A stretch of 54,223 nucleotides of DNA, counting the filler, from Jimgerdemannia flammicorona (lineage: Eukaryota), in assembly GCA_003990765.1 (NCBI GenBank). It is 3 parts of 3 records of this genome, joined end to end, with 100 filler letters (N's around TTAATTAATTAA, not from the genome) between each part and the next. Parts side by side here need not be neighbours in the genome. Positions count along the whole stretch, not along the records: positions 36,219 to 54,223 come from RBNJ01002334.1; 2 more parts are not named here. One strand, 5' to 3'. Numbering within the stretch: the first letter of the stretch is position 1; each line of letters begins with the position of its first letter. This document shows positions 1 to 53,108 of the stretch, one piece after another. Made by a program: the position numbers and the translations under genes. The notes under the pieces were generated by a model. The model was not told the origin of the DNA. It ran no database searches and saw only the letters and a list, made by a program, of their open reading frames with translations.

Positions 1-11
1 AAAAAAAAAAA

Positions 12-2825: not shown

Positions 2826-2829
2826 TACA

Positions 2830-4306: not shown

Positions 4307-4341
4307 GGTGTGCCCTGCCCTTTCTCTCTCCTATATACATA

Positions 4342-18009: not shown

Positions 18010-18109
18010 NNNNNNNNNNNNNNNNNNNNNNNNNNNNNNNNNNNNNNNNNNNNTTAATTAATTAANNNNNNNNNNNNNNNNNNNNNNNNNNNNNNNNNNN
18101 NNNNNNNNN
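18010..18109. other. Artificial contig linker (N44-TTAATTAATTAA-N44)
   Basis: 100 nt with stops in all six frames; identical to 36119-36218. Confidence 0.98.
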
Positions 18110-19432: not shown

Positions 19433-19599
19433 GTTATAATAAACTATAAACTAATAATCCTCTTTAGATTCTCTTATATATTACTGATCTTATCTATTAA
19501 ATACTATTTCAAAGTTTCTACAACTATCTCTCTAGTCTTTTAATTCTCTCTTTCTTAGTAATCTTCTAATACTTACTAGAAATCTTTTAATTTCTGATA

Positions 19600-21476: not shown

Positions 21477-21731
21477 TCTGATACTCTACCAAGATATACT
21501 CTGGTATTTACAGTCCAATCTCACACCTTTCCCTATTTTTAACTATTATCAAACCAGTCTTCTACCAGTTAATTGACTATCTCTCCAAAAGTCTCACCCT
21601 TATCTACTTTATTATCTCCTCTAAGAAAAATTGTCTATCTTCTTACTTTATATCTGAAAGATCTTTTCCTCTTATCACCTTCTTTCCTAATCCTCTCCCT
21701 CTACTATATCTACCCCCTGCAGCTCTAGAGC

Positions 21732-22155
21732 TAGTACTTTCAATGAATTAAATTGAATTAAATTTAGCCCAAATTTGATTTAATTTAATTGAATCAAAGA
21801 TCTAATTCAATTCGATTCAAAATTGAATCAAAGGTCCAATTTGATTCAAGATTCAATTTAAACTCTATTTTTTGAAATATAATAACTTAATGAAAATATA
21901 TCCAAATTTAACAAACTTTAGCTTATTAGATTCCTCTATATAAGAGAAATCCAACAAGCAAAAGATCATAAATTTAGATGTATTTTTGTCAAGTTATTAT
22001 ATTTCTAAAAATAGAGTTCAAATCAGACCCTCAATTTGATTTAAATTCAATTTGATTCAAACTTGATTCAAATTAAAAAATCCACAATTCAATTCAATTT
22101 GAATGACCCCCAATTCAATTTGATTTGAATTGATTTGATTCATTTGGAAGCAATA
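21732..22155. mobile_element. Non-autonomous foldback MITE, hAT-like, inserted in a minus-strand GA-rich (LINE-like) fragment
   Basis: Termini TAGTACTTTCAATGAAT / ATTCATTTGGAAGCAATA; long internal palindrome centred at ~21940; AATTCAATTTGA-type subterminal repeats; degraded 8-bp flanks TCTAGAGC / CCTATGGC. Confidence 0.7.
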
Positions 22156-24418
22156 CCTATGGCCAATCAAGCTTCCACTATCCCCTACCAAAAACCCTTA
22201 AACTATAATCTACTTACTCTCTCCACCCTAAGCAAACTCCTCACACTCAGGCTGTAAACCAAAAGTGATAATGAAAAAGTAAAGAAGCAAAGCATACCAG
22301 TTTTGCTATCCATTTAACAGAGTTGCACTGAAATTTCAATGCTTCTGTTAATCAAATAAAAATGAAAGTTTGCATAATATCCTTGTTTTTGAACATATCT
22401 TTGAGTATTATTATTTGTCTGCTTATTGATCAACACAGATTTTTTGCATGGCTCGCACCTTGCGGCGGCTTGCGCGGCTTGTGCTTGCGCGGCTATGCTT
22501 ACATGCACCTACCGCTTGCACACGAAATTAGCTAAGCCTGGTTGTTTTACCATCACTCGCATGTCAGGTTTAAATATACTGAAATTAGGGGAACTGGGTG
22601 CACTGGTTTCGTACATGCATATCGTGTCGCGGCCTATGACTTTTTCATCCCAGCTCTCGTCAAATATGCATATCTTTGTCAAATGCCTTGTTGGAAACTT
22701 TGCAAATTCATATGCCTATTAGCAAATGGGGCTCATAATTGAGTTAGTTTCAACCTTGAATATTGACCACCATCACTGGCGTCACACATGTGAAGTTAGG
22801 TCGTCAAATAAACACAAAACAAATGATTATCAAAAAGCATCAGTATATATACGACGATGAAGGTATACAGAGGAGACGTGATATTCAACAACTATGATCC
22901 GCAAACACTCAACACGAGAAAGCTTATTCGATAAGCAAAAGTTACTCCTTTTTACATTTTGCGCACACCCACCAAAGGTCACTTTTAGGTCGATCATGCC
23001 CACCCTCCTGGCTGGGTCGATCTCCTTGAGGAAGGCACCGACGGTCCTAAGGGACACGCTTCATCTCTATGACGATCTTCTTTTGCGACGGCGATGAAAG
23101 GTCGGTGATCTTGCCGCCCGTGTCGTGGACCGCCTCCCCGAAGGACTTGGTTCCGTCTTCTGAGAACTCCATGGTGACGCTTGGATCTCGTCCAGTAATG
23201 AAAGGCTTGTGTGTCGTAATATCCTATGATGTGAAGGATAATGACACTGATGAATAAGATTGATTTCAAAACAATATTTTGGTGAAATACGCAACCGCCA
23301 TAACGTGGTATATTTATCATACCAGATATCCTTGGGTGGGGCTTAACCAATTCAAGGATCTTCGGGCTGACCTTCGCACAGCAGATGGAGAACGAATATA
23401 TCCTTTACCATCTCTCCGGGTGCGAGAGGGTTTTCTGAATAAATTATTAATAGGGTAAGAGCGGGCCTGAGTCATGCATTATCGACCAAACTGTGCACGT
23501 CGTGGAAACTGAAGTCCATACATAACCAGCACAGGCTGTAGCACAGGGTTCGTCGACCGAACGTGCACGCCACCTATACCAACAGCCCGAGAGCGTAGCA
23601 TGGTGTGTAAGCACGGTGCTTGTCCACCAATATGTGCACGTCGCGGAAACTGAGGTTCGGACATGTTTCGATCTAATTCTCGCCAGTCGTCGCTGACTAT
23701 CTGCAGACGATGTTAAATACTTTGGGTTGATTACGACTCCAAGATTAACCATAAAAACCTAGAATGATGAATGACGCTTAACCGTAGAAGATTATCCGTA
23801 GAACAATTAACTGCCAAACGACGATGATGAACCGCGCAACCGCAAAATGGCGATGATTAACCATAGAACGATAACAATAGCCGATAATATCCACTGAACT
23901 CGACAAATCACAGAATGGCGACGAACCACAAAATGTCAACGAACGGCGACTATAGACGACGATAACCAATGAACGACAGTTAACCGAAGAATGCAAAAGG
24001 ACGTCCTGACCAAGACGTCCTGTTCGGAGCACTATGCTGGTGATTGCGATGAGTGGACCGAAATAAAATTGCTTCTACCACCTATCTGCGGTCAACGCAC
24101 CATATAGACCCGTACTCTTTCCAAAAGTCCTTAAAACTCCGCCGCCAAGCAATGACCCCAGGACTGATGCACCAAACACGACAACCCAATGGTCGCGATG
24201 TCACCAACGTCAGAAGAGTGAACGACGGAGAATCGGCATTATCGGTCAAGACGACAGAAGCGGTAGTATTGGCGGATTTGGAGATAGGAGTTGCAACAGA
24301 ATTATTAGCAGAAGCGAGTAGAATGCAGTGCTCACCAGGTAGGGAGTATGTGGGGAATGTTAGAGGAGAAACCAAGAAGCATAAAGTGGCGATAATGTAA
24401 TTAATACCGATGATTTTA

Positions 24419-30884: not shown

Positions 30885-33800
30885 TTTGCTCAAACCACTC
30901 AGAGTGAGCTAAGCTACATAGGTATCTTTTTGTGAAAAGCAATATATTTTCAAGTTCTCACTTTACCTACACCAGTATACTAGATACAGCAGGAGCCTGA
31001 CAATAATTTACAATAAGTTTTATCAAAATTCATTAAGTTTCCATATATATAATGATAATCTAAGATTCATTGAGCTCAGAGTGCTTGAAGAGGAGGAGGC
31101 CTGGCCTGGGTCTCCTTAAGAGTTTTATAGTGGCTGCTTGAGCTGGTGGTGTAGGAAGGCAGACTAGTGGTCAGAAGCTGGTAACTGGAGTGAATGGCTG
31201 GTGTACAGTAATAGAGAGTAGGTGGGTGGCCCCTAGGCCTACAGTGGGAGGGCAGGGGGAACATAGTATTGACAGAAGTGGGTATTATGTGACTGGTCAG
31301 CTGACTGGTCAGGGGCCCAGCAGGAGTCAGGGGTCCAGAGATAAGACTGCTGGGACTGGCTTTTCTGGAGCTAGGCTGGTGGCTGGAGGTATAACTACTG
31401 GTGGTATAGTAGTTCCTGAAGAGGTAGTGGCTGGTATTTCTAAGAGTAAGAGCAAGACAACTCTGACTACAGGAACTGGTGAGTTGGTAGTACATCTATT
31501 CTTTTATAAGTCAGTATCAATGTGTACAGTCTCTGCTAATTTCTTGGACCTTGGTTTATTAGTCAAGAAGGTTCTGTGACTGGTAGGTAAGGAGGTTGCA
31601 GGGGCAGAATTACTGTGATTTATTCATTTGGCAGAGGTGGTGGAGACTGGTTTTGTTGAGAAGGAGATCACGATAAAGGTCCTGAAGAAGGAGCTAATAA
31701 TCAAGAATGTCAAGGTGAGGATGACAAGATACTTAAGGTGAGACCTATGTATAGTGAGGCTGGTGGTTGAAGGATTGCTGATGCTGAGCAGATAGGAGAC
31801 TAAGATGGTTATAGCTGAAGCTCTGGAAGGTTTTGGTGAGATGGTAGATTTCAGATTCATGTTTTGGGAGAGTATGAAGTTGAGAAATGGTAATTATGAG
31901 ACAATAGTGTGGTTGGAAGAGAAGGAGGCAACTTGGTTGGAGCAGGACTGGCCTGAGATCATTTATATTAGGAGACAAGAGTATCAGATTTAGAGGAGAA
32001 AAGACTCAGAGCAGAAAGAGAAGAGTTGCTGATTGCCCTGAAGGAGTATGATGAAGTGAAGGCTTTACAGAAGAGGAAATAGGAGGAGTTTGTCAAGAAC
32101 TGAATCTGGATTGAGATAGATAGGAAGAGGAGACAATAGTGTAAGGAGAATTAGGAGTGGTTACAGATAGTATTGCAAGAGTCTGCCAAGGAGGAGGCTG
32201 AGAGAATTGTGACTGATAGGAATCAAATAGAAGGAGTAGAGGTAGCTGAAGTATCCTTCTCACAGCTAGGGAGAGTAGGAACCTCTGAGTATATATCTAT
32301 AAAGAAAAAGTGGGCTGATGGTGAGAAAGAGAGGAGAGCAGGCTTTAAGGAGGATGTTGAGGTAGTCTCTGAGACTCAGATAGAGGACATACATAACAAT
32401 AACCAGGTTGACAAATATATACTGGGAATTTCCTGAGGCTGGGAAGGTCATGCAGCTAAACAAAGTTTCAAAGGAGAATGATCTGGTAGAGATTGCTTCA
32501 GATGTATCTGTAGATAGATAATTGCTTTAGGAGCTGTGTAGGATCCCTAGATCTGCCACTCCAGGACTAATGGTAATGATAGTAGATGGTTGGTTCCAGG
32601 CTGTCCTGGAGGAGCTTGCAGAGAAAGACATTAAGGAAGTGGATGTATTTCAGAGTTCTCTGGAGGTATGAGAAGAGTTTCTTAAGGTAGCATTGCAAGG
32701 ACTGAAATTGGTAACCACTATGGTAGCAGTCCTCCTGAAGAATGAAGGGTATGAGATGGATGAAGCCTAGATGGCAGATATCAGAAAGGTAGCATCAGAA
32801 TGAGTGAACTTCTTCTGAGGCAGTATCAATGAAGAGTGAATTTGGAGAGTCATCTGTGAGGAGTATCAGAATATCATCAAGGGTAGAGCTGAGAAGGTGG
32901 TGACAGTAGCAGCAGATATCTAAACTCACTATCTATGATAAAGAACAACTTATGTCTTTTATCAATTAATGTCAATGATCTGTATAATAGGGTTAAGTGG
33001 TAGCATCTTTTTTGGTGGCTGAAGGTCCAGAGGTATGATGTGATATTTCTTCAGAGTATTTGGGCTTATGATATATAGGACTATGAGTTATAGAGTAAGG
33101 AATGGTTTGGAGGTGCTGGTTGGAATAAGTAAGTGAGTATTCTAGTTGGGGTTTGAAAGGATAAGCTAGTTGATATGGAAATCTTTAGTAGTTATCTGGT
33201 GTGTGGAAGACTGAAGGAAGATAATGGGGATGGACTTTTGGTGGGCTCAGTATATCTGCCAGTAGTTGGCAGAGAGTGAAAGCAATTGAGGGGAGGCTCT
33301 TAGAGATTGGGGGGTTGCCACATCTCCCTGGCAGGGTGGGTGTCGATTTTGAATATCTACTGGTTCCCCAAGCTATGGTATGTGGCCTATCACTTGGACT
33401 TTTCAGCTTGGGTGGTGAAGAGGCTAATGAAACTGACTAGAGATTGGATTTGAACAGAGAAGAGGTCCCAGATTAGTTGGTATACTCTTGCAATACCAGT
33501 GGTTAGGGGAGGACTAGGCCTTGTAGATTTCTCTAAGCAGCTGCACTGTCTGTGAGCTTGGTGGTTGAAAAGGGTAGTTGAACTGTAGGAAGGAGGATAG
33601 GTACCACTGATGCAGAAGGTGTGGGAGATGAGATTCTCTCCTTGGGGGTCCTTAGGAGATTTGCTCTCTCTAGTGGGTTTAAATGGAAGCTGATGGCTAT
33701 AGTATAAGAGATTCTGGTGGGGGGTGGTGGATAAAGTACACTGGATTGACCTGTATTGGCAAGGAGGTGCTGTGGGGTTTAGCTATGTGGTGATGGGACA

Positions 33801-34132
33801 GACTACTTCTGGGGGGGGTTCTGCTTACTAAGTTTGATATTGGTGATAGAGTGGAGTATCAGAGGGGACTTGGTCAGAATCTTTGACCAAGTAGTTGGCA
33901 GGTAGTGGAGATTGGTGAGGAGTGAGACTGGGTAGGAATCTGGTTCTAGAATGCTGAGGTGTGGAAGTGGCTTCCTCCCAGGTTCTGAGTGATATGGTAG
34001 TGGATGCTGAGGAGGAATATTATATTGAATTTCTGTGCTGGGCATCTGGTGGATAGTGGCCAATTAGATTGTGAGGAGTGTTATAATGTAGGGCAAGTTG
34101 GAGGATTTGTGCAAATGCCAGAATATTGGCTA
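30885..34132 (+). mobile_element. L1/Tx1-like LINE: 5' UTR, ORF1 (~31050-32923), ORF2 from 32935 with an internal deletion removing RT
   Basis: ORF2 begins MIKNNLCLLSINVNDL...LFWWLKVQRYDVIFLQ (APE endonuclease N-terminus); within ~400 nt it jumps to the post-RT motif DWI*TEKRSQISWYTLAIPVVRGGLGLVDF. Confidence 0.8.
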
Positions 34133-35789: not shown

Positions 35790-36118
35790 GAGGGGGATGA
35801 GAGTTGCAGGGTATTCTTGCCTAGGGGGTGGGGGATAGTTGGCTCACTGTAGGATAGGTGCTAGCAGTATGGGTGGGACTAGCGGGCCATTGGTTTTTTG
35901 TATTTGAAGAGAGGCAGTGGTTGGGGCTGCATGAGAAGATATTAAGGTGGGAGGAGCTGGTGGGGGATCTGCTGACCGGGTAGTGGGTGGGTTGGAGTCC
36001 TCAGGGAGGTCGACATCACGGTTTGGTGATGAAGATCTGTGAGCAGAGTGGTGGGAGGGTGGGGATGGTGTTCGACAAAGTGGTCTTTCACAGAGAAGGG
36101 GTAGGGGGGGGGGGGCCC
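35790..36118 (+). mobile_element. LINE 3' region, resuming after element C
   Basis: Similar to ~19020-19330 and nearly identical to 36219-36315. Confidence 0.7.
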
Positions 36119-36218
36119 NNNNNNNNNNNNNNNNNNNNNNNNNNNNNNNNNNNNNNNNNNNNTTAATTAATTAANNNNNNNNNNNNNNNNNNNNNNNNNN
36201 NNNNNNNNNNNNNNNNNN
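36119..36218. other. Artificial contig linker
   Basis: N44-TTAATTAATTAA-N44. Confidence 0.98.
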
Positions 36219-36389
36219 TTAGTGATGAAGATCTGTGAGCAGAGTGGTGGGAGGGTGGGCATAGTGTTCGACAAAGTGGTCTTTCACAGGGAAGGGATAG
36301 GGGGGGGGGGCCCCCCAAGGGGGATTGGATAGGGGGGGGGATCGTTGTAATTATAGAATAGATCGGTAATAAAGGGCAGTCCAAGTGAC

Positions 36390-36433
<44 letters not shown>
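36219..36433 (+). mobile_element. LINE 3' end with AATAAA and poly(A) tail, inserted into element B
   Basis: G-run 3' UTR, AATAAA at 36368, A-run at 36393-36433 abutting the element B reading frame. Confidence 0.85.
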
Positions 36434-36437
<4 letters not shown>

Positions 36438-37229
36438 CATATGTGAACACTTCATCAGCTTCCACTCACCAAGAGATGATTGTAGCAATTGCCGAATCCT
36501 AGATCTCAAGAAGATTCCAATGCTAGAAATTGATGACAAGGATGAATTGAAGTAAGCACCATCCCACAGCCGAATGCAATCTCCAACCCCGAAGACCTTC
36601 AAGAAGACCTATAAGGAAGGACAGAAGATCCTTGCCCGCCAAACATTCGAGTCCCTCACCATCAAAGGAGAAAGCAACAGTTCTTACACTATCACTCGGG
36701 CCCTCCAGATCACACAGCCCACCTATGATAAGTATCGGAAGAGATTTCCTACCAGTAGGGAGGTCAAACAGTGAAATGAAGACTTTGTCAAGAAGGGACA
36801 TTGTGATTGTGGAAAAACCTTTACCTGCTACTGGTGTGAACATCGAGATGTTCATCTCAGCGAAGATGTCTACAAGAGCCGAGTCAAGAGAAAGGATCCC
36901 ACCCTGTAAGAACCTTGAATTTGCTGGGCCTGTCAGAAGTGCAAAGAAATCAACCATGAAGGAGATTGTAAGTTCAAGAGCAAGACCTCTATCTGGGACC
37001 TACCATTGGAAGTTCTTGCCATTATTCACTGGTACTGTCGCCCTCATCAAGGAAAAGAAGGTGTCAACCTTGCCTTCATCCTTATGGAAGCTCTGGACCC
37101 TCTAGGAAAGACTGGATTCAATTACACAAGAAACTCAAAGACGGGAGCTCACTGGCCTTTCTTCAAACTGGAGCGCATGGACTTCTCACCTATAATGGCA
37201 ACAGCTGAAGCGCCATTTCTCAAAGCTCA

Positions 37230-37645
37230 ACCAATTATCCAGATCAAGCTGCTTTCCCCCTGGGCGCAGCCACCTCTTACACAAACAGAAGGATCAGTTG
37301 GTTATGACCTCTGCCTTCCCTACTAAGCAAGAATCCGACCCAGAAGTACCAGGACTTTTGACCTACAGATTGCACTTGCTATACCACCTGGGCATTATGG
37401 ACAGTTGGCCTCAAGATCCTCATTGGCAACCAAAGGAGTCACAGTAGAAGGAGGAGTCATCGATCAGGACTACCGAGGTCCCTTGAAGGTCATTATCCAC
37501 AATTCTAGTAAAACCAGCCGATTCTTCAGTCCTATGGAAGCCATCTGCCAAATCCTGTTTATCAAGACATCACAGCCAACCATCTAAGAGGTAGACCAAC
37601 TAGAAGATACCAACAGAGGACAAGGAGGCTTTGGAAGCACCAATA
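37230..37645 (+). pseudogene. Trimeric dUTPase domain in element B pol
   Basis: All five motifs: GSVGYDL, GQLASRSSLA, GGVIDQDYRG, ICQIL, RGQGGFGST; two nonsense changes. Confidence 0.93.
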
Positions 37646-39481
37646 GAAATCTATGGACACCACCTATCGAGGTTCATTTGGCAACAGTTGCTCAATTCTG
37701 ACAAATGAGACCCCATATCTGCCACCCAATCCGAGCAAGAGAAGACATCCTCCTGCAGCCCTACCAGCAAAAAGGCCTAGATGTGCACCTACCAGTAGAA
37801 GCAAACAACTTGATATTTGCACCATCACTGGAGCTTCAAAAGGAATACCACATCCTCCTGGCTGAAGAACGAATTCATGACCAGATGTCACCAATCCACA
37901 TCCCTATCAGAAACTCGGGCTTCGAAGTGATAACTATCCCTAAGGGAACAACACTGGGATATTTCGAACCACTGATAGACACCTACAAGGAAGAAGTCTT
38001 TGAATTCTTGGGAAATGGCAAGCTCTCTCCGGTGAGACTGATGGTACCAGGGAGGAAGACTCAGCAAATTCAGCGATCAAAGCCATCGATATCGAGACAA
38101 CTCTAACCAAAGACCAGCAACAACAAATACAGGAGTTGATAGAGGAGTACAAAGATATATTTACCACCACATACGATAACTTCTCACCATATCAATATGG
38201 AGAACACCCTATACATACTGGAGATGCAAGACCAATCTGACAACGACCCTACCGAACACCACATCATCTGATTGAATTCAAACAACAACACATAGACGAA
38301 ATGCTACGAAACAGAGTCATCAGACCATCATCAAGCCCCTGGGCCTCACCAGCAATCATAGTACCAAAGAAAGGAGGATGGAGATTAGTTGTGGATTTCA
38401 GAAAACTCAACAAAGTCACCACAGAAGATGCCTACCCACTGCCAAGAATTGATGACCTCATCAATGCCCTCGGAAAAGCCAAATACATGACCACTACTGA
38501 CCAGTTCCAAGGATTCCAAGTAATACCCATTGCCAAAGAAGATATCTGCAAGATGGCCTTCATCACCAGATGAGGACAGTATGAATACCTCCGAATGCCC
38601 TTTGGACTCTGCAATGCATCTGCCTTATTCCAACGAATGATGAACTATATCTACTAGGACCTCATTGGAAGAAATGTACTAGTGTACATAGATGATGTCA
38701 TCATCTACTCTAAGACATTCAAGCAGCATTTGCAAGACCTCCGTGAAGTATTCAATACCATTCAAAATTCAGGACTCAGACTCAATGCCAAGAAGTGCTT
38801 CTTCAGAAAACATCAAGTCGAATATCTGGGATATGTTGTCTCAGCTCAAGGAACACATGCCGACCCCCGCAAGGTAGAGAAAGTCAAGAACTATCCAACC
38901 CCGACCTTAGCAAAGGAGACCCTATCCTTTCTTATGCTGGCATCCTACTATCAACGATTCATCCCAAGGTTTTCAGATAAGGCAGCACATCTCTGAGATA
39001 TCTCCAAGAAGGACCAACCATTCTACTGAAAAGAAGAATAATAAAAGTCATTCGACCTACTCAAGAAGGCACTTACTGAAGCCCCTGTCCTGGTGTGACC
39101 AGACTTTGGCAAACCATTCATCCTGGCAACTGATGCCTCAGCCTTAGGACTTGGATCAATTCTGTCTCAGCAAGATGACCAGAAGAGGGAGCATATTATC
39201 GAATATGCTAGCAAGGCCACAAATGAAATACAAGCGAACTATGGAGCCACTAAGTTGGAATGCCTAGCAGTAGTTTGGGCTGTGGACCACTTCCGACACT
39301 ATCTCTTGGGAAAGAGATTTGCCCTCATTACTGACCATCAAGCTCTACAATGGTTATTCAACAAGCCGGAGCCCTCAGGAATCTTCGCTAGATGGATCAT
39401 GTCTCTGCAAGAATATCAGTTCACTATTGTCTACAAGAAAGGTGCTAAGAATTCCAACATCGATACCCTGTCAAGAATCCC

Positions 39482-40762
39482 ATGAAACCAATAAGAAGGG
39501 AAGGAGCCCCCACGAGAGAAGGCTGCTTCCCGCTCACCCAAATGAACCAAGAATTGCGCCTCGCCCTCACCTGGAGTCTACACCATAGAAGCTTCAAGAA
39601 AGGAATCCAACCAGCCCACAAGTTGTTTATCCAAAGGAATTTCAAGAAATTCCAAGAAGGCAATGGCGAACTTTGGAGAGTAGAAGGAGAGCAATACACC
39701 TGAGTTTCAAGAGAAGAAGAAATATTGAAGATCCTGACAACAAATCATAACCAAAATGCACACCGAGGAATTGGTGCCACAATCGCAAGAACCAAGAAGC
39801 GATACTGGTGGCCCAAGATGAGAAAACAAATTTCAACCCATATTCAACAATGTGATATCTGCCAAAGATACCGACAAAAACCTACTGACAGAGCACTATT
39901 AATACTGATTGCAGCACCAGCTGGAGCCTTTCAAAGACTGGGAATAGACATTATTGGACCCCTACCAGTAACCAGCCGAGGAAGATGCTACATCCTCACT
40001 ATTGAAGACCACCTGACAAAATGGCCCAAAGCCTTTGCCATCGAGACTGCCGATGCCCAGACAATTATTGGGATCCTGTATGATGAAATTTTCAGCTGCC
40101 ATAGTGTGCCCAAGGAAATCATTACAGACCAAGGCCAAGAATTCGTCAACCAAGCCATGAAGACCTTTGCAAGCAACTTCAAGATCAAGCTACGACCAAC
40201 AACAGCCTACCACCCACAGGTAAATAGACTCACTGAACAAATGAACCAGACCATCAAGCGAGGTCTCACTAGAACCAGAGATCAACTAAACTGGGATATC
40301 TATCTATCGGCAATTCTGTTTAGCATCCATACCTCTAAGGCAACCGCTACCCAACAGACCCCCTTCTATTTAGTGTATGGCCGAGAAGTACAAGATCCTA
40401 CTGAACCAGTCCAGCTAGATCTGTCAAAGCGAGTCACAGAAGAGATCACCCAGTTATACGATGTATGCCAGCAAGCACGAGGATTTATCACCAAGGCACA
40501 AAAACGACAAAAGAGGTACTACAACCACAAAGCCGACCTTGAACCCCTGCTCATTGGACAAAAGGTTCTGGTGTACCATACCATCATAGAAGGAAATTGG
40601 AGTGCCAAGCTTGAACCAAAATGGGAAGGCCCCTATCTCATACATTAAGTATTCTCGAACCATACTTATCAACTCAAGACCTTGGATGGAGTTATACTCA
40701 AGACCAAGATACATTGCAACTGCATAAGACTCTACTACTCAAGAGAAGCAAAATGCATTTGA
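39482..40762 (+). pseudogene. Integrase ORF of element B
   Basis: Zn-binding HHCC, DDE core and GPY motif; starts at an ATG overlapping the RNase H stop; internal stops at 39701 and 40646. Confidence 0.88.
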
Positions 40763-41294
40763 ACAATCCTGTTCACTCTGTCTGTGTCGTCTCCGCTGGA
40801 GATACAACGGATGTTTCACTCAGAACTCAAGAAAGCCAACAACGTTGGAACCAGACTCAAGCCCATCCACGTGACAGACATTGTTACTAAGAAATTGCCT
40901 CGGATTACAAGTAATACTATTTCTGATAGGTTCGAACCCCCAGCCGTGACTATGGGAGCCCTCACCCTAGACAAGGATGGCCAGTCCTCACAAATGCGCC
41001 AGCACTCCGCTCATCCCTGGAGTTAAGACCACCCAACTCTGTGTAACCCTCACCACCAAGGATGGCTCTAATTTTGCAAGAGACAGATGTGACGTACACA
41101 ATTGACAATGGAGTACCGGTGACTGCTAAGATCAGACGACATAATGGCATGACAATCAAATAGACAGCCTGACCCATTAGGTGATCATCCCAAAAGAAGA
41201 CAAGATGATCTGAGCCAAAATGAAGACCACGTTATTTAAGGAACCATACTCTGCCTCAAGGATCGGCACCAAAGAACCAAGTACCCACCACACA

Positions 41295-42251
41295 ATGCCT
41301 CCCATTCGCCGAACCAACCAGACCTCCCGCCGCTCTACCCCTTTGCCTGGCCCAAAGACCCTGATATTTGAAGCTATCAAGAAGGCCATCTGGTGCCCAG
41401 ATACTTCCAAACTCTTGAACTTCTATACTGAGGACCTTGGACACTTCATCAACTACCGGTATATAATGACCCAACAGCTCAAAAACACTACTGAACAAAT
41501 GACCCTCTGGCATGACTATGAAATCAGACACTGCCTTTGCAATGAGACTCAAGAAGGCGATTAGGAAGACCTTATTGCTGAAATGTTAACCACCAGCCGG
41601 CTAATCAAGAGAGCCCTCTGTGTCCATCAAATCTTCCGCTATATTCCCTGGGCTATAGCACACTTGCAAGGAGTAACAGCTGGCAGCCTCTCCTGCCTTT
41701 CAACTGAAGATGCTGACTGGATAGAATCTGAAGTAGCTAACGCTATTGGCAGCAACTGCATCGCTGTAGGAAGCCAACAAACCGAACCTACTCAGCCAGG
41801 TTTCCACACCACCCCACTCCGAGACAACCATCAAGGTCACCTAATGAGTCTTATGGAGATATTTGAAGGACCGCCCATCACTATAGAGACACCTGTTGGA
41901 GCTACCCCAACCACCCACCACCCTGTCAGCCACAATTCACACCTCATCATTTGGGAACCGAATCAAGAAGAAGCCCAAGAACTCCAAGACCCTGCCCCTG
42001 AAGAAACCCCCTCTGATACTGAAACTGACGAGCCTTCAGAAGAAGAAGAGGAGCAACAGAGAGTCTACCAGTCCTCTGTCTGCATTCAAGCTGTTCAAGG
42101 ATTGGAGAATGTTGTTGAAGATGACTGGCCACTTTTCTACCCCCTCACCTCTTGGCCGGTGCTTCCCCCCTTTGAGGAGAGATATGATGAAGAAGAAATC
42201 ACAACCCAGCAAGATTTGCCCACCACAGACGAAGGGTACTATTTCCTCTAG
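41295..42251 (+). pseudogene. 3' accessory ORF of element B (~318 aa, one internal TAG), unknown function
   Basis: MPPIRRTNQ...; ORFs 41220-41564 and 41583-42251 are in the same frame; acidic C-terminus runs into the proposed LTR. Confidence 0.75.
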
Positions 42252-43366
42252 AGTACCACCCATCAGCCATGAGAACCCAGCTTTTGTCAGCAAGTCCGTT
42301 TCCAGCGTTAATACCCAGTACCACCATTTTCAGCATTTTGTCAGCAGATCCAAATTCAGCATTACCACCCTCCACAACCATTTCTGGCAACAATCATCGT
42401 ATCATGTCAGCTCATCTGAATTCAGCATTGCTATCCAGTGCCGCCATTTTCAGCATTTTGTCAGCAAGTCCGAATCCAGCATTGCTATCCCCTATAACCC
42501 AATCCATAGTAAACAATAGCCTGCACCTCACATCGTGCAAACCAATAGCATAAGTTCACCACAACGTAGTATACCTTAGCCTTAGTCGTGCCCCCTCTCC
42601 TATAGCTAGCAAACTTGTATAAATAACCCATATTCTTAGAGTGAATAAACCTCAGTCAATTGGTTTTGAGAAATAACTACTGCCTCCAAGAGACTGGATA
42701 AATTCTAAGAACAAGATAACAACCTAGAGCAACAGATCACTCGGAAGTTTGAGTTAAAGAATTTTCTCTTGCCATGGAAAGAAAATGTTACCCGATGGCC
42801 ACCATTCGAGACCCAGCCAAGGATTCAAGACCAGACCGCCATTCGGACCACTGCCATTCAACTGCTATTCGAGATTCAAGATCTGGAAAACCAAGGAACC
42901 CAAGGATACCCAGCCAAACAAGACTGCAGCCTAAGACCTGCCAAAGGATACTAGACCGCCAAAGACCGACCCACTGCCAAAAGACCCGAATGACTGCCAG
43001 GAACCTAACAAGTTAAGACGGATGAGCGAGCCATCGACCGATTCCCAACCTACTGTACCATGGACTGCTTTAATTAACCGCATAAAGAGCAAGACCGTCA
43101 AGACTGTTGCCACATAAATTCAAGTTCGCTGCCAAGTTATTTGCCGCCCTTATCCACTAAACAGTTGAGCCACGATCGTTAAACAACCGAATGACCTCAC
43201 CATCGACGTCCTGAGCCAACGACAAACGATCTCCCGCTATTATTACTGTATGAACCGAACGACCTGTCATGTGACCATCGACCTGCGAACATCACCAATG
43301 CCTTCAGTTATACATTGTGCACTTCACCAAGTGGCACACATTGAGCCATGCAGTCAAAGTTCATTA
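42185..43366 (+). repeat. Probable 3' LTR of element B (~1.18 kb)
   Basis: Purine tract GAGGAGAGA then TGATGAAG...GTTCATTA (imperfect inverted termini); tandem CAGCATTTTGTCAGCAAGTCC repeats at 42278-42490; TATAAATA at 42618; AATAAA at 42644; no second LTR available to confirm. Confidence 0.55.
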
Positions 43367-44300
43367 TACATAAACCAATGCCACAATAGATAAAGTATGA
43401 GATAAAATCTAGCTATTATTATATATGTAACTTATAGATTATTTAGAAATTTCTCATCAAGAAGTATTAACTCAATTAAATATTGAGATAGAATGAGAAT
43501 ATTACTATCTTTAATATTCTCAAATTGATATAGCCAGAATATAGATCTTGGTCATTTAAGTTTATATTCTAGAGTTTCTAGTATAACTTATTCAGCATTA
43601 TTTAATTCCTCTATTAAATAAATATCTTTATAAAGCTATCTAATGAAACTTATAAGAATATTCTTATAGTATTTATATTTATAGATAATTTTGAAGTACT
43701 ATTATACTTAATATCTAAAGGTAATTCTTTAGAGTATTAATATTTAACAATGTGTGATCAATAGTATCTATATATATATAAATAGTACTTATAGAGGAAG
43801 TTGGGGATCTTAGTGAATAAAAATAATTTAATTTACAAGAATTTGGCAGTGGAATGAGCCAATATATATGTATGTATCTATATACTTAGGATCTAGATTA
43901 TATTTAATCTGATCATATTTTAAATATAAGTAATATAAATAAATAATCTAACTCAAAATATTGATTGATTTTGATGATAGAATTACTCATCTCTGATTCT
44001 TTCAAATACTTGTAATAATTCTTTAAGTCATTATTACTAACTAATACTAGGAATATAATTATATTAAAATGCAAATATATATACTAATCTATCAACTCTT
44101 ATATCTTAAGTAGAGATATACTATATCTGGTTTTAAATACATAAATCATTCTTCAAAACTAGATCTTATATTTCAGAATTATCCATTATCTATAGATAAT
44201 ATTCAGATAAAGATATCATTATTTGAAAGTATATATTAGATAGAAATCTGTTATATTAACTCAATTGGTAATATTATCAGAACATCTCTCTCATTTGAAG
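43367..44300 (-). pseudogene. Hypermutated cyclin gene (A/B-type cyclin box) with an upstream F-box-like motif
   Basis: Manual translation through stops: LIILPIELI*QISI*YILSNNDIF (F-box-like); LDPKYI...CQILVN*IIFIH*...VLF...TIDHTL...L*ILSIIVL..IIYKY...EELNNAE*VILETLEYKLK*PRSIFWL...LSQYLIELILLDEKFL (cyclin N and C domains). Confidence 0.75.
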
Positions 44301-44869
44301 TAAATAACTAGAAAAGTATAGTATATCTGCTATTTATACCTAATTTTATAGTAGGTATAATTAGTTACATTTTAATAGTGAATCTATTTTACTGTTAATT
44401 ACTTTTGAGATATTAAAATTACTTATGCAATTAGGGTATTATATTTAAATAGTAGTTTTGTATATAAGATCTGAGAAGTAGATAGAATATATAATAAGTG
44501 AAGAGTATACTCTATTATTGATAAAGTAATATTGAACTAAAATATAAAAAGATATTTATAAGTTATTAAATATGAGTACATATTGATTTACTATTAGTTA
44601 TCTGTATAATATTACTATTAAGCAACTAAAAGTCTCACAGAAGAGATAGAACCTCTTAATAGATCATGTGTAGTATTTGATCTAAACTATAATAATTATT
44701 TATAACTAAATATTAAATTATTTTAAATTTCTATTTTTCTATTAGAGATAAATGACTGAAATTAATAATTTAGCTATTTGTCAACCAATATATCATATCT
44801 GACTATTTATCTCAACTTTACTCCTTATTTTTTATATTATGTTTCTATTTATTTATTTATGAGTTATAT

Positions 44870-45470
44870 ATTATATCCGACTATTTGCCTCAGACCTCTT
44901 TATTTCAAACTAGATAATTCTAAGCTACTTATTGGAAAAGCCATTATACCTGTCTGAATATATTTATTTCTTAAATAATCAAATTAATATAGTTATCCTA
45001 AAGTAGTATAGACTATACTGGCTCTTTTACACTAATATAAAATCTTAGGTTTGGTGATTCACAATCTCTAAAGACTAGTTTATAGACTCATTCAATCTGT
45101 CTATAGAGATTTAGAAATAATATATATATATATTATATAGATCTCTTTTTCTTAGACCCATATATTACTCTGAGCTGATATTTTTATTTACTCACAACCT
45201 ACTAATATAAATACCATTATACTAAGATATAATAAGATATATACTATAGAGATACTTATACTATATAGAGTTGTCAATAGTCCTTCCTTCAGAGTAATTA
45301 GTAAGTTAATAATATATTTTTACTCACTTTATACAAATTATACAAATTGCATTAGCTCTTTATAGTTCTCTATAATATGAGTTTATTACTTAATAATGCT
45401 CTAGTTAAGAATAAATTACAAAGATTTAGTATATATTCTAAGAACTTTAAAAAGTTAAAGAAGATTAAGA
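44870..45470 (-). pseudogene. Hypermutated relic of a spliced gene, unknown product
   Basis: Two GTGAGT donors (~45325, ~45195) with matching AG acceptors flank exon-sized blocks in AT-rich DNA. Confidence 0.3.
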
Positions 45471-45842
45471 ATTTGAGATAAGAAAATCTGCTATACTTCT
45501 GAGATTAAGTATCTACTATATTATAATAAATATAGTATTTACTATATAACTTAAGATATAAGTTATTATAATTTATATAAATAACTAGTATTTTTAAGTA
45601 AATAAAGACCTTAGTTTTAAAATAAATAAATAATATAATAGTTTAAAACTCCTCTTATATATATATATTTTTTTAAACTCTATAACTCTGATTTTTTTTT
45701 ATAAGCTTTGTTATATCTTTATTACTTTCAATATTCTAATTATTATCAGATTAAATTAGACAATAACTAGAATAAATATATATGATAAAACTATAAATAA
45801 CTAACTTTAAAAGAGTTAGATTATTAATATAAAGAATAAGTT

Positions 45843-46306
45843 TATAATAATTTCATAGTCATATTTAGTCTTAGTACATTTTTGTATCTTTTAGTTAGTC
45901 TTTTCTTGTCATTTCTTAAACATTCTACTATGTTCTGCCACCTTTTACTTGCTTAGAAACCTTCTCTTGGTATCCAGACACCACTAGAATATTCTTGTCT
46001 TTCCTTAGTAATAAGTATCTTATCTTAGCTAGTCATAGAACCTTTCAGAACATTGTAGAATAGTATTAGTCAGCTTTATTGAGAACCTATTTCTTGGCAT
46101 TTCTCTTTCTTTCCAAGATCCTTCCAGATCTTTCTTTCAGATCATATATAAATATCCTTGTTCTCTGCTTAAATAAAGCTCGGAATATTTTCTCCCAGAA
46201 ATTCTTCAAGAATACTTGAATCTTTAAGTATCTCTCCAAGCTACTTTAGGTCAACTAGAACTTCCAGATTTAGCTACTTCCTCTTAAAGAAACTAGAACT
46301 GTTATA
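45843..46306 (+). repeat. 5' LTR of element A
   Basis: TATAATA...TGTTATA (mutated TG...CA termini); matches 51478-51951. Confidence 0.95.
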
Positions 46307-46308
46307 CT

Positions 46309-46320
46309 TGGTAGCAGTGG
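46309..46320 (+). promoter_or_regulatory. Primer-binding site, likely for initiator tRNA-Met
   Basis: TGGTAGCAGTGG 2 nt after the LTR; TGGTAGC is complementary to the 3' end of eukaryotic tRNA-iMet. Confidence 0.75.
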
Positions 46321-47374
46321 TGTCATTATATCTTGCCTTATTAAGAAACCTCACATGAATTTGGAAACTAGTCACAAATAGTCATACAAATCTGAAATAA
46401 GCTGCAAAGAGGCAGTCTATCAGCCAGACCCCTCTGCTATAGAAGAAGCAGGAAGATCACAGCTCAATATAGAGGATGTGATCAATACTATGATCTACCA
46501 AATCAAAGAACTTTAAGTATAACTAGAATAGTAGAAAACAAGAACTACAAGTATATCATATTCTGCTATAGCACCAGTTAGTTTCAAGCCACTCAAGCCA
46601 GATATCTTCAACAGCTATCAAGGAGGGCTATCTACAGATGCATGGACCTTCTAGTTGGACTAATACTTCAAGCTTACAAGAATGGAAGAAGATATACAAG
46701 TCCAATTTACCACTACACTTCTCTGAGAAAATACAACCATCTAGTAGTACAATTATATCATGGTTATCTCTGTACACTCATATGTATGAATCAGAGACTG
46801 AGAAGCCTTCAAGAGAGTTCTTCACAAGCAGTTCAAGTCCGCTAATGCTACCAAACTAGCTAGAGACAAGCTAGTGAACATTAAGCAACTCAAGTCTATG
46901 CAAAGCTATAATGTATAATTCTTGTCAATCCTACTTGAGTTACCAGTGATATCTGAGGACAAAAAGATAGACTGCTATATCTGAGGCCTGAAGAGAAACA
47001 CACAAGTCAAGGTCAAGCTAAAAGAGCCCAAAAATCTTAATAAAGCTATGAGAATTACTGATAGGTTTGATATCATCACCTTTGATAACTGTTTCAAACC
47101 AGAACACCATAAGAAGAATTACTTTGAGAACCACCATAAGAACCAATCAAAGACAGTTGGTCCAACACCAATGGACCTAGACACTATGAATAAAAAGAAC
47201 ACCAAGCTTACCCCTGAAAAAAAGGACCACCTGAAGAAATCTGAAGTTTGTTTCTTCTGTCACCAAATAGGACATATTGTAACCAAATGTCCTAAGAAGA
47301 CTAGCAAACCCTCAAGACCAGTCACTGTATTGTCCAAGAACATATCTGTCAATCTCACCACCAGTCAACCTGAG

Positions 47375-47775
47375 CTCAAGATCAAGAAGCTTCATCTGAA
47401 GACCCAGATTCCCTAATATTGAGCTATTGGTCTTAACCTATACTCAGTCAAACAAGTCACTATTCCAGTCAAGGGCTGAACTCTGGTGTCTACTGGAATT
47501 GCAGTTCAATACTCTGAAGGACATTATACTAGAATTGCACTGTGATCAGAACTCAGTATCAAACATCATTTAGATATAGGCACTAGTATCATTGATCTAG
47601 ACTTTCAAGGACAAGTTCAAGTTCTACTTATCAACCAGAAGGATCAAGACTACACAGTTAAGAAAGGAGACCAAGTCATGCAAATGATCCTAGAAAAAGC
47701 CAGTCAACTCAAGATTATAGAAGTCCAAGAACTCCCTGAAACTCAATGAGATCAAAAAGGTTTTGACAGTACTGA
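47375..47775 (+). pseudogene. dUTPase domain of element A, in frame between the gag zinc knuckle and protease
   Basis: LKIKKL...AIGLNLYS...VSTGIAV...RIAL*SELSIK...IIDLDFQGQVQVLLIN...KKGDQVMQMI...Q*DQKGFDST. Confidence 0.88.
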
Positions 47776-50700
47776 TTAAGTAGCAAGTCTTAGTGAAAAT
47801 CGAGCTCAAGCTATGCTCATTTTCAAAGGCCTAGTTAAAGGAAAAGAAGTTCAAGAACTTATAGACAGTGGAGCTATAGGGAACTTTATCAATCAGAATC
47901 TCATCAAAAGCCTCAAAATCCTTACCAAGCCTGCACCCAAGAATAATAGTATAGTCACTGCAGATGGTACTCTGTACCCCATTGAGTCAATTGCTGCCAA
48001 ACTACCCATTAAGATCCAGAAATATTAGGAACAAGTAGACTTTGAGGTTATACCACTAGGAGATCATGACCTGATCTTAGGAAAACTCTGGCTTATGAAA
48101 CACAACCCAGACATTGATTGGTATAAGAATAAAGTCACCCTACTTCAAGATGGAGTCAATATTACTATCAAGACAGACAAGACTATGAGCAAGACCCAGA
48201 TTGCAATACTGTCAGCTATACAGTACAAGAGAGTACTCAAGAAGGCAATATATGTCTTTATTGTAATAGTTTATTCTAAGAAACAAGACAAGAGACTATC
48301 AGTCAATAAAAGCATCAAGTTACTGCTAGAAGAATTCAAGGATATCTTTCCAGACAAGCTACCTGATCTATCACCTACATAAGAAGTTGATCATGAAATC
48401 AAACTGACTCCAAGATACCACCCAAGAAATATATATACTGCATATTACCACTTTAAATTGAAGTAGTCAAGAAAGAACTAGAAGAACTACTTATATGAGA
48501 AGCCATTCAGCCAAGCAAATCTCCTTATGGCTTACTAGTCTTATTCATCAAGAAGAAGGATAGTACTCTGCAAATGTGTATAAACTATCATGTACTCAAC
48601 AAACTCACTGTCAAGAACTGCTATCTACTACTCTTAATTGATCAAATCTTTGATACTCTTAAGAATGCCAAATACTTCACTAAGTTAGACCTTATGTCAG
48701 GATACTACCAGATTTGAATCAAGCCAGAAGACATTCCCAAGACTATATTCATGACCCCCTTTAGACTCTATGAATTCCTGGTCTTAGCATTTGGTCTCAC
48801 CAATTTACCCACCACATTCCAGACTCTGATGAATAAGATATTCAAGAACTAACTATTTATTTTTCTATTGATATATCTTGACAACATCCTGATCTTTAGT
48901 GTAATTAAAGAAGAATATCTCAAACATATTTGAATAGTCCTGGAGATTCTGTGAAAACACAAGCTTTATACTAAGCTCAAGAAGTGTGAATTCTTCAAGA
49001 AATAAGTCAAATACCTTGGTCACATTATCTCTGTACAAGGAATTCAAGTAGACCCATATAAGATAGAAGTAATTGAAGAATGGTCCATTCCATCAAACCT
49101 TATAGAACTCTGATCCTTCCTTGGTCTAGCTGGCTACTACCACTACTTTGTCAGAAACTTCTCTAGTATTGCCAAGCCACTGACTAACCTCATGAGGAAG
49201 GCTTTGCACTCAGACCACTACATACCCTACACCTGGGACCTCTTCTGTCAATAAGCCTTTCAAGAACTCAAGAACTGCTGACCCATGCTCTAGTCTTGCA
49301 TAATGCAGATCAAGGCCTAAAATTCATAATCACTACTGATATATCAAATTTTACCATTAGAGCAGTTCTGTTATAAGATAATGGTAAAGGACATCATTCT
49401 ATTACTTTCATATCCTGCAAGTTGGCCCTAGCTAAATAAAAGCTAGCCACTCATGAGAAGAAACTACTGGTAATAATATATACACTAGACCACTGGTAAT
49501 GTTATCTAGAAGGTATTGAGTTTAATATCATTACTGATTATCAATCTCTCAAGTACATCAATACCCAATCTACCCTGTCATATCTATAAGCCAAGTGGAG
49601 CCTCAAGCTTCAAATCTTCAATCTGACAATCATCTATAAGTCTGGCAAGACACTTTTAGTACCAGATGCCTTATCAAGATGTCCAGACCTTATCACAATT
49701 ATACAGGTTACCTTGGCATTAGAATTCCTAGACCAAATCAGGTAAGCTTATAAAGAGGACACAGTTGCTACTAGAGTTTTCTCAAACAAGCTCAAGGATA
49801 CATATACTATCAAGAACAACCTGATCTATTATTAAGATCAAGTCTATCTATCTAAAAACATGAACCTACACTATAAGGTTTTACAAGAACACTATGACTC
49901 CCCTCTTGCTGGTCATCTAGAAATTGAGAAGACTGTTAAGAACATTCAACACTACTACTATTAGTTAAGCATAGTCAAGGAAATTAAGAACTATATTGCC
50001 AGCTGTAATCTGTATTAGTACAACAAGTCTATCAACCAAGTACCAACCAGTTTGCTACAACTACTACCAATTCTTATCAAGAAATTTGAGTAAGTTACCA
50101 TAGACTTTATAACTTAACTACTACAAACTCAATCTGGTGCTAATGCTATCACCATATTTATTAACTATCTGACCAAGACTATGGTTGCTGAACTAACTAC
50201 TAACAATGCTACTATACCCAAGATTATAAGAATCTTCTTCAAGTCCATCTTCCATCACTATGACCTACTATGAGTAATTGTCAGCAATTATGACCCCAAG
50301 TTCACTAGTTACTTCTGGTAAACCCTCTTCAAGACCCTGAGAACCCAATTGGCTATATCTACCACCTTTTACCTACAAACTGATGGACAAACTGAGTGCA
50401 TGAACAGAACTCTAGAACAAATGCTTAGAAACTATGTTTCTTATAAGCAAGATGATTGAGACCACTACCTGACTTATGTGGAGTTTGTATATAACAATAC
50501 TATCCAATTATCTACTGATCTTTCCCCTTTTCAGTTACTCTATGGTCAAGATTCTAAGACCTCTGCAAGTCTATTTCCTTTTAAGAAAAGCAGTCAAATA
50601 TAAATTCCAACTACCAAGAATCTTATAGACAAAATAGACAAACTACTTAAGATTGCTACCATAAATCTTCAGAAGACTCAATAGCATCAAGCCAAGTATA

Positions 50701-51477
50701 CTGATAAGAAATGCCATGATATTACTTACACTGTTGGAGATCAAGTCCTACTGTCTACCAAGAACCTCAAGATATAATCTCAAGTCAACCACTCTTCAAA
50801 CAAATTCCAACTCAAGTATATTGGATCTTTTGAGATCATTGAATAAGTCTCTATATTCTCCTACTGCCTCAAGCTACCTGAAACCATGAGAGTATACCCA
50901 GTCTTTCATGTGTCACACCTCAAGACCTGAAACTAGTCACTGCCCTACCTTGGTCAAATTCCTAAGCCTTCTACTCCTGTAATTATTAAAGACTATATTG
51001 AGTATGAAGCTGAAAAAATCCTTGACAAATGAATCCACTACCACTATCCTAAATACCTAGTTAAGTAGATGTATTATTCTAAATATAATACTATCTGGGA
51101 ACCACTGATCAATCTCAAGAACTCTCAAGATCTAGTTTAAGACTTCGAGGTAAAATATATTGTCTAATCTCTGTAGTGACTTCCTTGAATTGTCAATGAC
51201 CTATAGTAATAATCAGTACTTTATATATCAGATGTTTACTTTGGGACCCCAGAACTAGTAGAATATTTAATAAATAAGAAGTCTACTAAAATAAAGCTAC
51301 TAGCTGAGTTCAAACTCCTTCTAGTTGGTTAGTCTGATAATAGACCCTCTGTCCTATATAAAGATGACCAATCTCTACCAATGTACCAATACAAGTTTGA
51401 GAAATTTTGATTAAATATATCTAGTCTTGTATTACCTAAGAACTCAATGAGGACATTGGTTCTTAAGGAGGGAGGGA

Positions 51478-51951
51478 TGTAACAATTTCATAATTATATT
51501 TAGTCTTAGTATATTTTTGTATCTTTTAGTTGGTCTTTTCTTGTCATTTCTTATCATTTCTTGAACATTCTACTATGTTCTGCTACCTTTTACTTACTTA
51601 GAAACCTTCTCTCAGTACCCAGATATTACTAGAACATTCTTGTCTTTTCTTAGTATTAAGTATCTTATTTTAGCTAGTCATAGAACCTTTTAGAACATTG
51701 TAGAATAGTATTAGTCAGCTTTGCTAAGAACTTATTTCTTGGCATTTCTCTTTCTTTCCAAGATTCTTCTGTATCTTTCTTTTAGATCATATATAAATAT
51801 CCTTATTCTCTATTTAAATAAAACTCAGAATATTTTCTTTCAGAAATCCTTCAAGAATATTTAAACCTTTAAGTATCTCTCTGAGCTACTTTAGATTAAC
51901 TAGAACTTCCAGATTTAGCTACTTTCTCTTAAAGAAACTAGAACTATTACA
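51478..51951 (+). repeat. 3' LTR of element A
   Basis: TGTAACA...TATTACA; carries a 10-bp internal duplication (TCATTTCTTA) relative to the 5' LTR. Confidence 0.95.
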
Positions 51952-53108
51952 AAGCTACTATAATTTAGAATTAATTATTATAATCTAGTAACTAACTTAA
52001 AAAAAGTTAAAACTGCATAATATGAAAATTATAATTCCGAATTGATAATTAATAACAAACTTAAACAGATCAGATCTTAATAAACAAAAGATATTATAAC
52101 TCTAAATATTTAGAATAAGATAAATATAATAAATAAATAAGAATATTATAATAAAAAAATATAATATATATGTATACTAAAAATATATTATACTTTAAAA
52201 AATTAATATTCTCTATATTATATATTACTAATTTTAAAATAATATATTATAGTAGTAAATTTAAACCAATTTAACTTTATATCTATTTTATTTATAACTA
52301 AATTATTTTAATTAGATCTATTAGCTAATATAAATATAATTCACTCATATTTTTAAAATTTATTAATAGTATAATAGAGTGATTATTAGTAGTTATGAGA
52401 GACTTAATTATAAAAACAAATTAATAGAATACTTAAAGATATCTATACTAAATAATATATACTTATATTATATTAGTATATAATATACTATAACTAAAAA
52501 TACTCAGTAATAAAAACAGATGTAAATCTGCTCACAGAAACTAAACATTTACTTGAAAACTCATAGAAATCTGATAATAAAGAAAGTCAACCAAAGAATA
52601 ATCAAAAAAAAAAAAGTTTGCTAATATCTAGCATAAGCTTAACCTCAAGAAAGCTCACAATATCAACTTTCTAACATATTGTACACCCATACACCTATAC
52701 AGTAATATCCATCTGACATATTCTAACTTATATTTAAATATATTTCAATATTAATAAAAAACTTATAAAATAATATTTTTTAATTAACAAATATAAAAGA
52801 TTATAAAATCCAATTTTTACACCTTTTGCAAATTCCCTACTTCTACTATACAAACTTGATAAACTATATATACAAATAGTTAAAATATATATATCTGCAA
52901 AAACTTCAATTACATTAAAGCACTACATTAAAACACATTATAACAATACCATCACCTTTACAAACTCACAACATACACCTAAATCGCATTATAACATAAT
53001 CATATTATATCTTTGCAACCAATATAAAACATAGAGATTAGAAAGTATTAACAACAATACATAAGTTAAAATAACTCAATGCGAAATCTGTACAAAGTAT
53101 ATATATAC

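Follow-up and report, generated by a model that had tools for sequence, protein, structure and literature searches.

A hypermutated cyclin relic in AT-rich DNA of the fungus Jimgerdemannia flammicorona

The minus strand of a 54,223-nt stretch of nuclear DNA from Jimgerdemannia flammicorona (Endogonales, Mucoromycota; assembly GCA_003990765.1) contains the relic of a cyclin gene between positions 44232 and approximately 43387. The whole stretch, which joins parts of three records and is termed here the window, was the object of the analysis. The relic is very probably a dead pseudogene copy from a small, lineage-specific and divergent B/A-type cyclin-like family, whose only known members are two J. 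flammicorona proteins and one environmental fragment. It lies in an AT-rich, hypermutated block of 2471 bp (43386–45856; GC content 0.20), and a retrotransposon that is far less mutated adjoins its 3′ end. An original prediction, made by reading the DNA without database searches, had proposed that a cryptic gene combining an F-box with a cyclin is buried at this place.

The decisive evidence comes from an exhaustive phmmer search of 1.84 billion representative proteins at E ≤ 0.001. The query was an 84-residue read-through translation of positions 43641–43390, in which in-frame stops are written as X. Exactly three proteins were returned. Two are from J. flammicorona: RUP46399.1 (P0003), a 114-aa fragment (E = 1.1e-21, 65% identity), and RUP51339.1 (P0004), a 'cyclin-like protein' of 338 aa (E = 6.3e-14, 56% identity). 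The third (P0005; E = 9e-6, 44% identity) is an environmental fragment from a 1232-bp ENA contig and looks partly decayed. P0004 displays the Pfam domains Cyclin_N (residues 86–212, E = 8.7e-28) and Cyclin_C (residues 214–311, E = 3.8e-15) and no other credible domain. Its PDB matches are to cyclin B1 (E = 4e-27), cyclin A2 (about 2e-25), cyclin F (2.4e-11) and cyclin E (about 6e-9). In tblastn searches of the window the three proteins find this locus only, P0003 with E = 6e-32 at 61% identity and the others with E = 3e-27 and 2e-11; all other high-scoring segment pairs have E > 0.2. Because of the phmmer relatives, the cyclin domains of P0004 and tblastn matches confined to one locus, the buried cyclin is real. 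By homology, the relic spans all of Cyclin_N and approximately the first half of Cyclin_C (PF00134 and PF02984).

The homology path runs from 44232, which faces residue 1 of P0004, to about 43387, near residue 270, and crosses three frame changes; its 254 codons include 14 in-frame stops. As had been predicted, no open reading frame (ORF) covers the stretch: none of the 122 stop-to-stop ORFs of at least 85 aa in the window lies between 43014 and 46571. The motif strings on which the original prediction was built are also found where it placed them. These are QILVNxIIFIH (43845–43813), AExVILETLEYKLKxPRSIFWL (43596–43531), LSQYLIELILLDEKFL (43491–43444) and, further upstream, the F-box-like LPIELIxQISIxY (44271–44233), all of which share the minus-strand frame beginning at 44340. 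The prediction had put the F-box-like string and the cyclin motifs in the same register. That is correct for these four strings, but the argument has less force than it seems to, because the homology path switches frame three times from LPIELI to the cyclin box; the ID(H/R) and LxILSIIVLQ motifs (43771–43691) are in another frame.

The N-terminal segment (44232–44131, minus strand, frame of 44340) aligns ungapped with P0004 residues 1–34. It scores 28.4 bits by a log-odds measure that allows for C>T change (C>T-aware), which replaced an ad hoc penalty version that was too permissive, with a background of 60–87. The best of 23 other frames or blocks reaches 18.5 bits, and 60 simulated blocks give a mean maximum of 15.4 (standard deviation 1.5) and a highest value of 19.9. 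The start of the cyclin box, used as a positive control, scores 42.6 bits against 16.7 for the next best. The codon that faces Met1 of P0004 is ATA (44232–44230). Residues 35–46 of P0004 have no counterpart in the relic, which reflects a deletion of about 36 nt, and at about 44131 the frame changes. The rest of the first exon (44131–43991, frame of 44698) corresponds to P0004 residues 47–95 with a local alignment score of 74, and tblastn places P0004 67–96 on 44080–43988 (E = 0.006).

A probable intron of 82 nt follows (43990–43909, minus strand). It begins with ATGAGT (GTGAGT after a G>A change) and ends with GATCAG. The exon before it ends in …KESE at 43991 and the next starts with IKYNLDPKY at 43908, and the two align gap-free to P0004 residues 95 and 96. 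A tandem duplication in place of an intron (44013–43909) was considered and is not supported, with a DNA score of 12 against a null of 10.4 ± 2.1. The second exon opens with the start of the cyclin box (43908–43774; P0004 96–139, score 79), where QILVNxIIFIH represents the first helix. A frameshift in a TA run at 43773–43772 leads to the middle of the cyclin box (43771–43691; P0004 144–167, frame of 44698, score 40). A second frameshift, one extra A at 43690, leads to the end of Cyclin_N and the first half of Cyclin_C (43689–43387), which correspond to P0004 168–268 and P0003 5–104.

The differences between the relic and its relatives follow one mutational direction. In 100 positions compared with P0003 there are 62 identities and 38 mismatches; a codon for the P0003 residue could have given rise to 28 of the latter through C>T/G>A changes alone (reachable mismatches), so that 90 positions agree when these are included. 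Shuffling the residues among the mismatch positions (10,000 permutations) yields 6.8 ± 2.3 reachable mismatches and a maximum of 16. Relative to P0004, identity is found at 109 of 246 positions, or at 165 with reachable changes; 56 of 137 mismatches are reachable, and the permutation null is 19.1 ± 3.8 (maximum 33). The permutation was relied upon in place of a reverse-direction control (2 and 3 reachable), which is biased by composition. Most stops face Trp or Gln in the homologues: 10 of 14 do so in the comparison with P0004, and three of the four in that with P0003 face Trp. The relic thus displays directional C>T/G>A change on both strands, as in repeat-induced point mutation (RIP), and with a CpG observed/expected (O/E) ratio of 0.04 in the block, the predicted hypermutation is upheld.

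The sequence context of the lost cytosines differs from that of classical RIP. In addition to the near absence of CpG, the O/E ratios in the block are 0.66 for CpA, 0.73 for TpG, 1.22 for TpA, 1.60 for CpT and 1.59 for ApG. Cytosine loss is therefore ordered, with CpG affected above all, then CpA, and CpT spared; direction and scale are RIP-like, but the classical CpA preference is not seen. CpG O/E ratios are 0.00–0.41 in other repeats of the window, as opposed to 1.05 in its gene-rich part. Classical RIP thresholds are a TpA/ApT index above 0.89 and a (CpA+TpG)/(ApC+GpT) index below 1.03. The two indices are 1.01 and 1.13 for the relic and 1.22 and 0.64 for the rest of the block. RIP relics in the AT-rich isochores of ascomycetes are similar in having C>T/G>A changes on both strands, a GC content down to 20%, stops at Trp and Gln codons and sharp borders; they differ in context, and the relic's second index is not RIP-like. 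The pattern would be explained equally well if methylated cytosines had been deaminated in silenced, repeat-rich DNA, a process that may have spread from nearby elements.

Four blocks in the window have a GC content of 19–27% (1–3800, 19300–22300, 43386–45856 and 51800–53000). Their CpG O/E ratios are 0.00–0.21, CpA and TpG are depleted, and CpT and ApG are enriched. The direction of change has been proven codon by codon in one of them. Genome sizes of 96–240 Mb are cited for Endogonales (PMC7928374). A recent kingdom-wide screen describes RIP-like signatures in ascomycetes only and none for Mucoromycota (PMC12543289). No report of RIP-like hypermutation in Endogonales was found in the literature, which was seen in part, and this is not proof that there is none.

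At its 3′ end the relic is truncated. Only weak similarity is seen in a transition zone (43386–43345, minus strand), and the last 60–70 or so residues of the homologue are missing. In the space of 50 nt the GC content climbs from roughly 0.2 to roughly 0.5 (43387–43345); the left compositional jump of the block lies within 43340–43390, and its right edge is at about 45856. The tail of P0004 (residues 262–338), used alone, gives a best E of 1.0–1.4 in 42000–43420, and residues 282–338 give no signal in the other AT-rich blocks (20.7 versus 19.6 bits). A soil-metagenome DNA run that holds a small share of the sequence words yielded five short contigs, one of which, 225 nt in length, is identical to the window over 43305–43529 and spans the junction; no RNA run was listed as sharing the words, and positions that the contigs leave uncovered are uninformative. 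The identity speaks against an assembly error at this place, with the reservation that this run and the source of the window may not be independent.

The neighbor at this junction is a Ty3/Gypsy-type retrotransposon on the plus strand, here termed Element B (36300–43340, limits approximate). It encodes a dUTPase (37327–37584, E = 1.6e-17), a reverse transcriptase of the RVT_1 family (38241–38993), an RNase H (39099–39482, E = 5.8e-38) and an integrase (39704–40645, E = 5e-16 and 4e-12). With a GC content of 0.46 and a CpG O/E ratio of 0.41, it is far less mutated than the relic beside it. The dUTPase domain is situated upstream of the reverse transcriptase. That Element B cuts the 3′ part of the cyclin, as was predicted, agrees with the stop of homology at the compositional jump beside it; the insertion itself is something that we infer.

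Several observations weigh against the relic being read as a hypermutated cyclin pseudogene cut by a transposon. When the relic itself is compared with Pfam, its matches stay under the threshold and are no stronger than those of the controls. The whole 324-aa read-through, with 29 stops as X, matches no Pfam family and nothing in PDB. When 57 seventy-residue pieces from the three minus-strand frames were searched, the only families at E ≤ 0.1 were Cyclin_C (0.019) and Forkhead (0.025 and 0.06, in overlapping pieces), while 111 control pieces, from the opposite strand and from both strands of nearby AT-rich DNA, matched LRR_5 (0.025) and RRM_PARP14_2 (0.027). The Cyclin_C matches have E-values of 0.019–0.069 and 13.6–15.4 bits, as compared with a cut-off of 22. 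On the reconstructed peptide there is a Cyclin_C match below the cut-off but none to Cyclin_N even at E ≤ 10; P0004 carries both. A coding-potential test based on purines and pyrimidines, which is invariant to transitions, has low power and gave no clear frame signal, with a weak one at 43641–43390. The intron is probable, and is read only from the alignment and the look of its splice sites. No pair of long terminal repeats (LTRs) and no ends were found for Element B, whose tail (42300–43500) is not repeated elsewhere in the window; it is for this reason that insertion, as distinct from deletion and juxtaposition, has to be inferred. Classical Neurospora RIP does not have the strong bias toward CpG over CpA, with CpT left intact, that is seen here, and the hypermutation may therefore be due either to a RIP-like process or to deamination. 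Lastly, the LPIELI string just upstream of the relic is unlikely to be there by chance, and a pseudogene leaves it unexplained.

The most radical alternative is that the cyclin likeness is a chance translation product of DNA with 80% A+T, which is rich in codons for I, L, Y, K, N, E and F. The motifs are indeed built of AT-rich codons, and Pfam matches of Cyclin_C strength occur in control frames as well. Searches with the relic alone were also of little help: PDB gave cyclin Y at E = 0.4–0.8, and in a word-indexed protein search none of 264 candidates reached E ≤ 10. Chance can nevertheless be given practically no credence, as it is refuted by the phmmer and tblastn E-values and by collinear homology over 254 codons with mismatches in a single mutational direction. 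There is a lesson of method here: family models and word-indexed searches failed on the hypermutated read-through, and it took an exhaustive profile search, followed by a C>T-aware score, to bring the gene to light together with its frames and start. A second alternative is that the ancestor was a fusion of F-box and cyclin, a fungal analogue of animal cyclin F, with LPIELI representing the first F-box helix upstream of the annotated start. The string (44271–44233, minus strand), an unproven F-box-like motif, ends directly before the codon aligned to Met1 of P0004, begins 13 codons upstream of it and is in frame with it. The pattern LP.E[LIV][LIV]..I occurs once in the block and not in three other AT-rich blocks, with P = 0.0015 per 2.47 kb in six frames (2000 Markov simulations). 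Also, the distances from LP to Asp (18 residues) and from Asp to Trp or stop (14, in P0004) resemble those in a genuine F-box-like ORF elsewhere in the window (20 and 14), although this is a visual reading with no statistic. That ORF (4294–5301, plus strand) is intact, matches PF12937 at residues 23–62 (E = 3.4e-6) and is unrelated to the relic; it serves as an example of a true F-box in the same genome. On the other hand, the motif was chosen post hoc, and neither F-box model (PF00646, PF12937) matches at E ≤ 10 in the 57 pieces or in two additional ones. PDB likewise has no match at E ≤ 10 for the LPIELI region. In P0004, the only intact relative of full length, no F-box is seen at E ≤ 1 with the complete protein or at E ≤ 10 with residues 1–86, and the stretch that would have to form helices two and three of an F-box is polar and rich in glycine. 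Its cyclin box is closest to cyclins B1 and A2, not F, the difference being about 15 orders of magnitude in E-value. The F-box of ORF 4294–5301, used as a C>T-aware probe, misses the LPIELI site; as a single-sequence probe, it is a weak test. The F-box and cyclin architecture that had been predicted thus finds no domain match, and the fusion is unlikely. In animal cyclin F (FBXO1) the feature held in common is the cyclin box, with a short LP.EL-type string N-terminal to it in the relic; the spacing from motif to cyclin box is far shorter in the relic, since the cyclin part of chain 9cb3_A starts near residue 299. The LPIELI string would be 5′ leader if the annotated start of the homologue is right, and could be coding if that gene model is truncated at its 5′ end. 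A broader proposal joins this ancestry to a mechanism: an F-box-bearing B-type cyclin, an independent fungal counterpart of cyclin F, in a small, fast-evolving family specific to Endogonaceae, had its extra copies destroyed by a CpG/CpA-directed RIP-like process, in a phylum thought to be without such a genome defence. We regard this as quite unlikely.

A further proposal makes the cyclin a cargo gene that a mobile element or virus carried in many copies, with repetition as the reason for its hypermutation. There are at least two paralogues in J. flammicorona in addition to the decayed-looking environmental fragment, P0003 starts at about the place where the relic has its second frameshift, and the relic is situated amid a nest of retroelements and was mutated as they were. 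Positive evidence of cargo was nonetheless absent from the searches made. In the 168 read-through pieces of the 2.47-kb block no Pfam family of any kind reaches its cut-off, transposase, reverse transcriptase and capsid domains included, and the edges of the block are both occupied by other retroelements. No second copy is present in the window by tblastn or by a RIP-invariant word search; the transition-invariant 26-mer search of 43380–45856 gave only a local match with a spacing of 78 nt (44788/44866). A pattern scan of IMG/VR found no relative, with 28 and 209 pattern matches in viral contigs, but exact 7- or 8-residue peptide patterns make this a weak test. In metagenome contigs, 187 pattern matches likewise contained no relative, and a further 40 contained one distant cyclin, in a soil contig of 6206 bp (L001, 2645–2857; 28% identity to P0004 115–187). 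The probable spliceosomal intron is what would be expected of a DNA-level copy of a cellular gene. In ascomycete RIP, hypermutation can leak from repeats into adjoining single-copy DNA, and being mutated like a repeat therefore does not prove repetition. Cargo of an element or virus is accordingly an improbable origin. The TATA-like box that had been pointed out upstream carries no weight, as the 2471-bp block contains 60 instances of TATA[AT]A[AT].

A dead copy of a cellular cyclin gene remains the preferred interpretation. The gene copy would have sat in, or been copied into, repeat-rich DNA; because the probable intron is retained, it would not be a retrocopy. Massive C-to-T change on both strands, most of all at CpG but at CpA too, would then have brought the GC content to 20% and turned Trp and Gln codons into stops. 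One-base slips in the TA run and the A run, together with the deletion of about 36 nt, would have broken the frame, and the less mutated Ty3/Gypsy element would have come to adjoin and truncate the 3′ end. Repeated duplication and decay within the family is plausible because J. flammicorona has at least two members, P0003 begins at about the place of a frameshift and P0005 looks partly decayed. The relic itself has no function now; as a fossil, it is unable to influence the cell cycle.

Comparison with known cyclins shows how divergent the family is. P0004 matches cyclins B1 and A2 over both cyclin folds, with Cyclin_N and Cyclin_C, as in the B/A-type mitotic cyclins, but it has a very short N-terminus with about 85 residues before the cyclin box. 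In a word-indexed search P0004 finds only itself, and the 84-aa relic piece finds only the three proteins described above. The relic belongs to the same family as P0003 and P0004 and is collinear with the latter, from which it differs in its stops and frame changes, in lacking a C-terminus and a counterpart of residues 35–46, and in having LPIELI upstream of the start.

A putative half forkhead domain lies 100–200 nt upstream of the relic (44449–44339, minus strand, frame of 44698). It matches Pfam Forkhead (PF00250) over profile positions 5–42 of 88 with E = 0.025–0.1 and 13.1–15.1 bits, below the cut-off of 27. The only PDB match is FOXG1 (E = 0.56), and a word-indexed search found no relative, longer proteins giving four candidates of which none qualified. 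The evidence is at the level that the cyclin had before it was verified, and in control frames about one piece in 55 gives a chance Pfam match as strong as this.

In the window as a whole, genes of normal GC content alternate with retroelements and with blocks of 19–29% GC. The gene-rich, normal-GC part includes a Set1-type SET-domain gene (14.9–18.0 kb, an 830-aa ORF) and domain matches to RRP36 and an S33 hydrolase. Next to the right edge of the relic's block is an element on the plus strand (45856–51800; GC 0.35, CpG O/E 0.02) with direct repeats of 300 nt at its ends (45856–46155 and 51501–51800, 86% identical); its four ORFs of at least 85 aa have no Pfam match. The first AT-rich block is probably a hypermutated retroelement, since an RVT_1 fragment (3842–4108, minus strand, E = 7.8e-9) lies at its edge. 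A large nested element may have its LTRs in two direct repeats (18119–18914 and 33345–34132) that are 75–79% identical and separated by about 15.2 kb. Between 29000 and 36000, G greatly exceeds C on the plus strand, the GC skew being +0.18 to +0.47 along these 7 kb; the CpG O/E ratio is 0.07, and the ORFs of this region are without Pfam matches. Runs of N are located at approximately 18010–18110 and 36119–36220. The second is flanked by two 96-nt stretches (36023–36118 and 36219–36314) that are 94% identical, with G12–C3 runs and a TTAATTAATTAA linker alongside. The pair looks like an unmerged overlap at a scaffold join, and therefore the 5′ end of Element B is uncertain.

The relic documents a divergent, lineage-specific family of B-type cyclin-like proteins in the Endogonaceae, with at least one destroyed copy. 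It also proves, codon by codon, that DNA of a Mucoromycota genome was hypermutated in the C>T direction until its GC content had fallen to 20%. The hypermutation is a by-product of the analysis that is more notable than the gene, and if a mechanism dependent on duplication were confirmed, it would deserve separate study.

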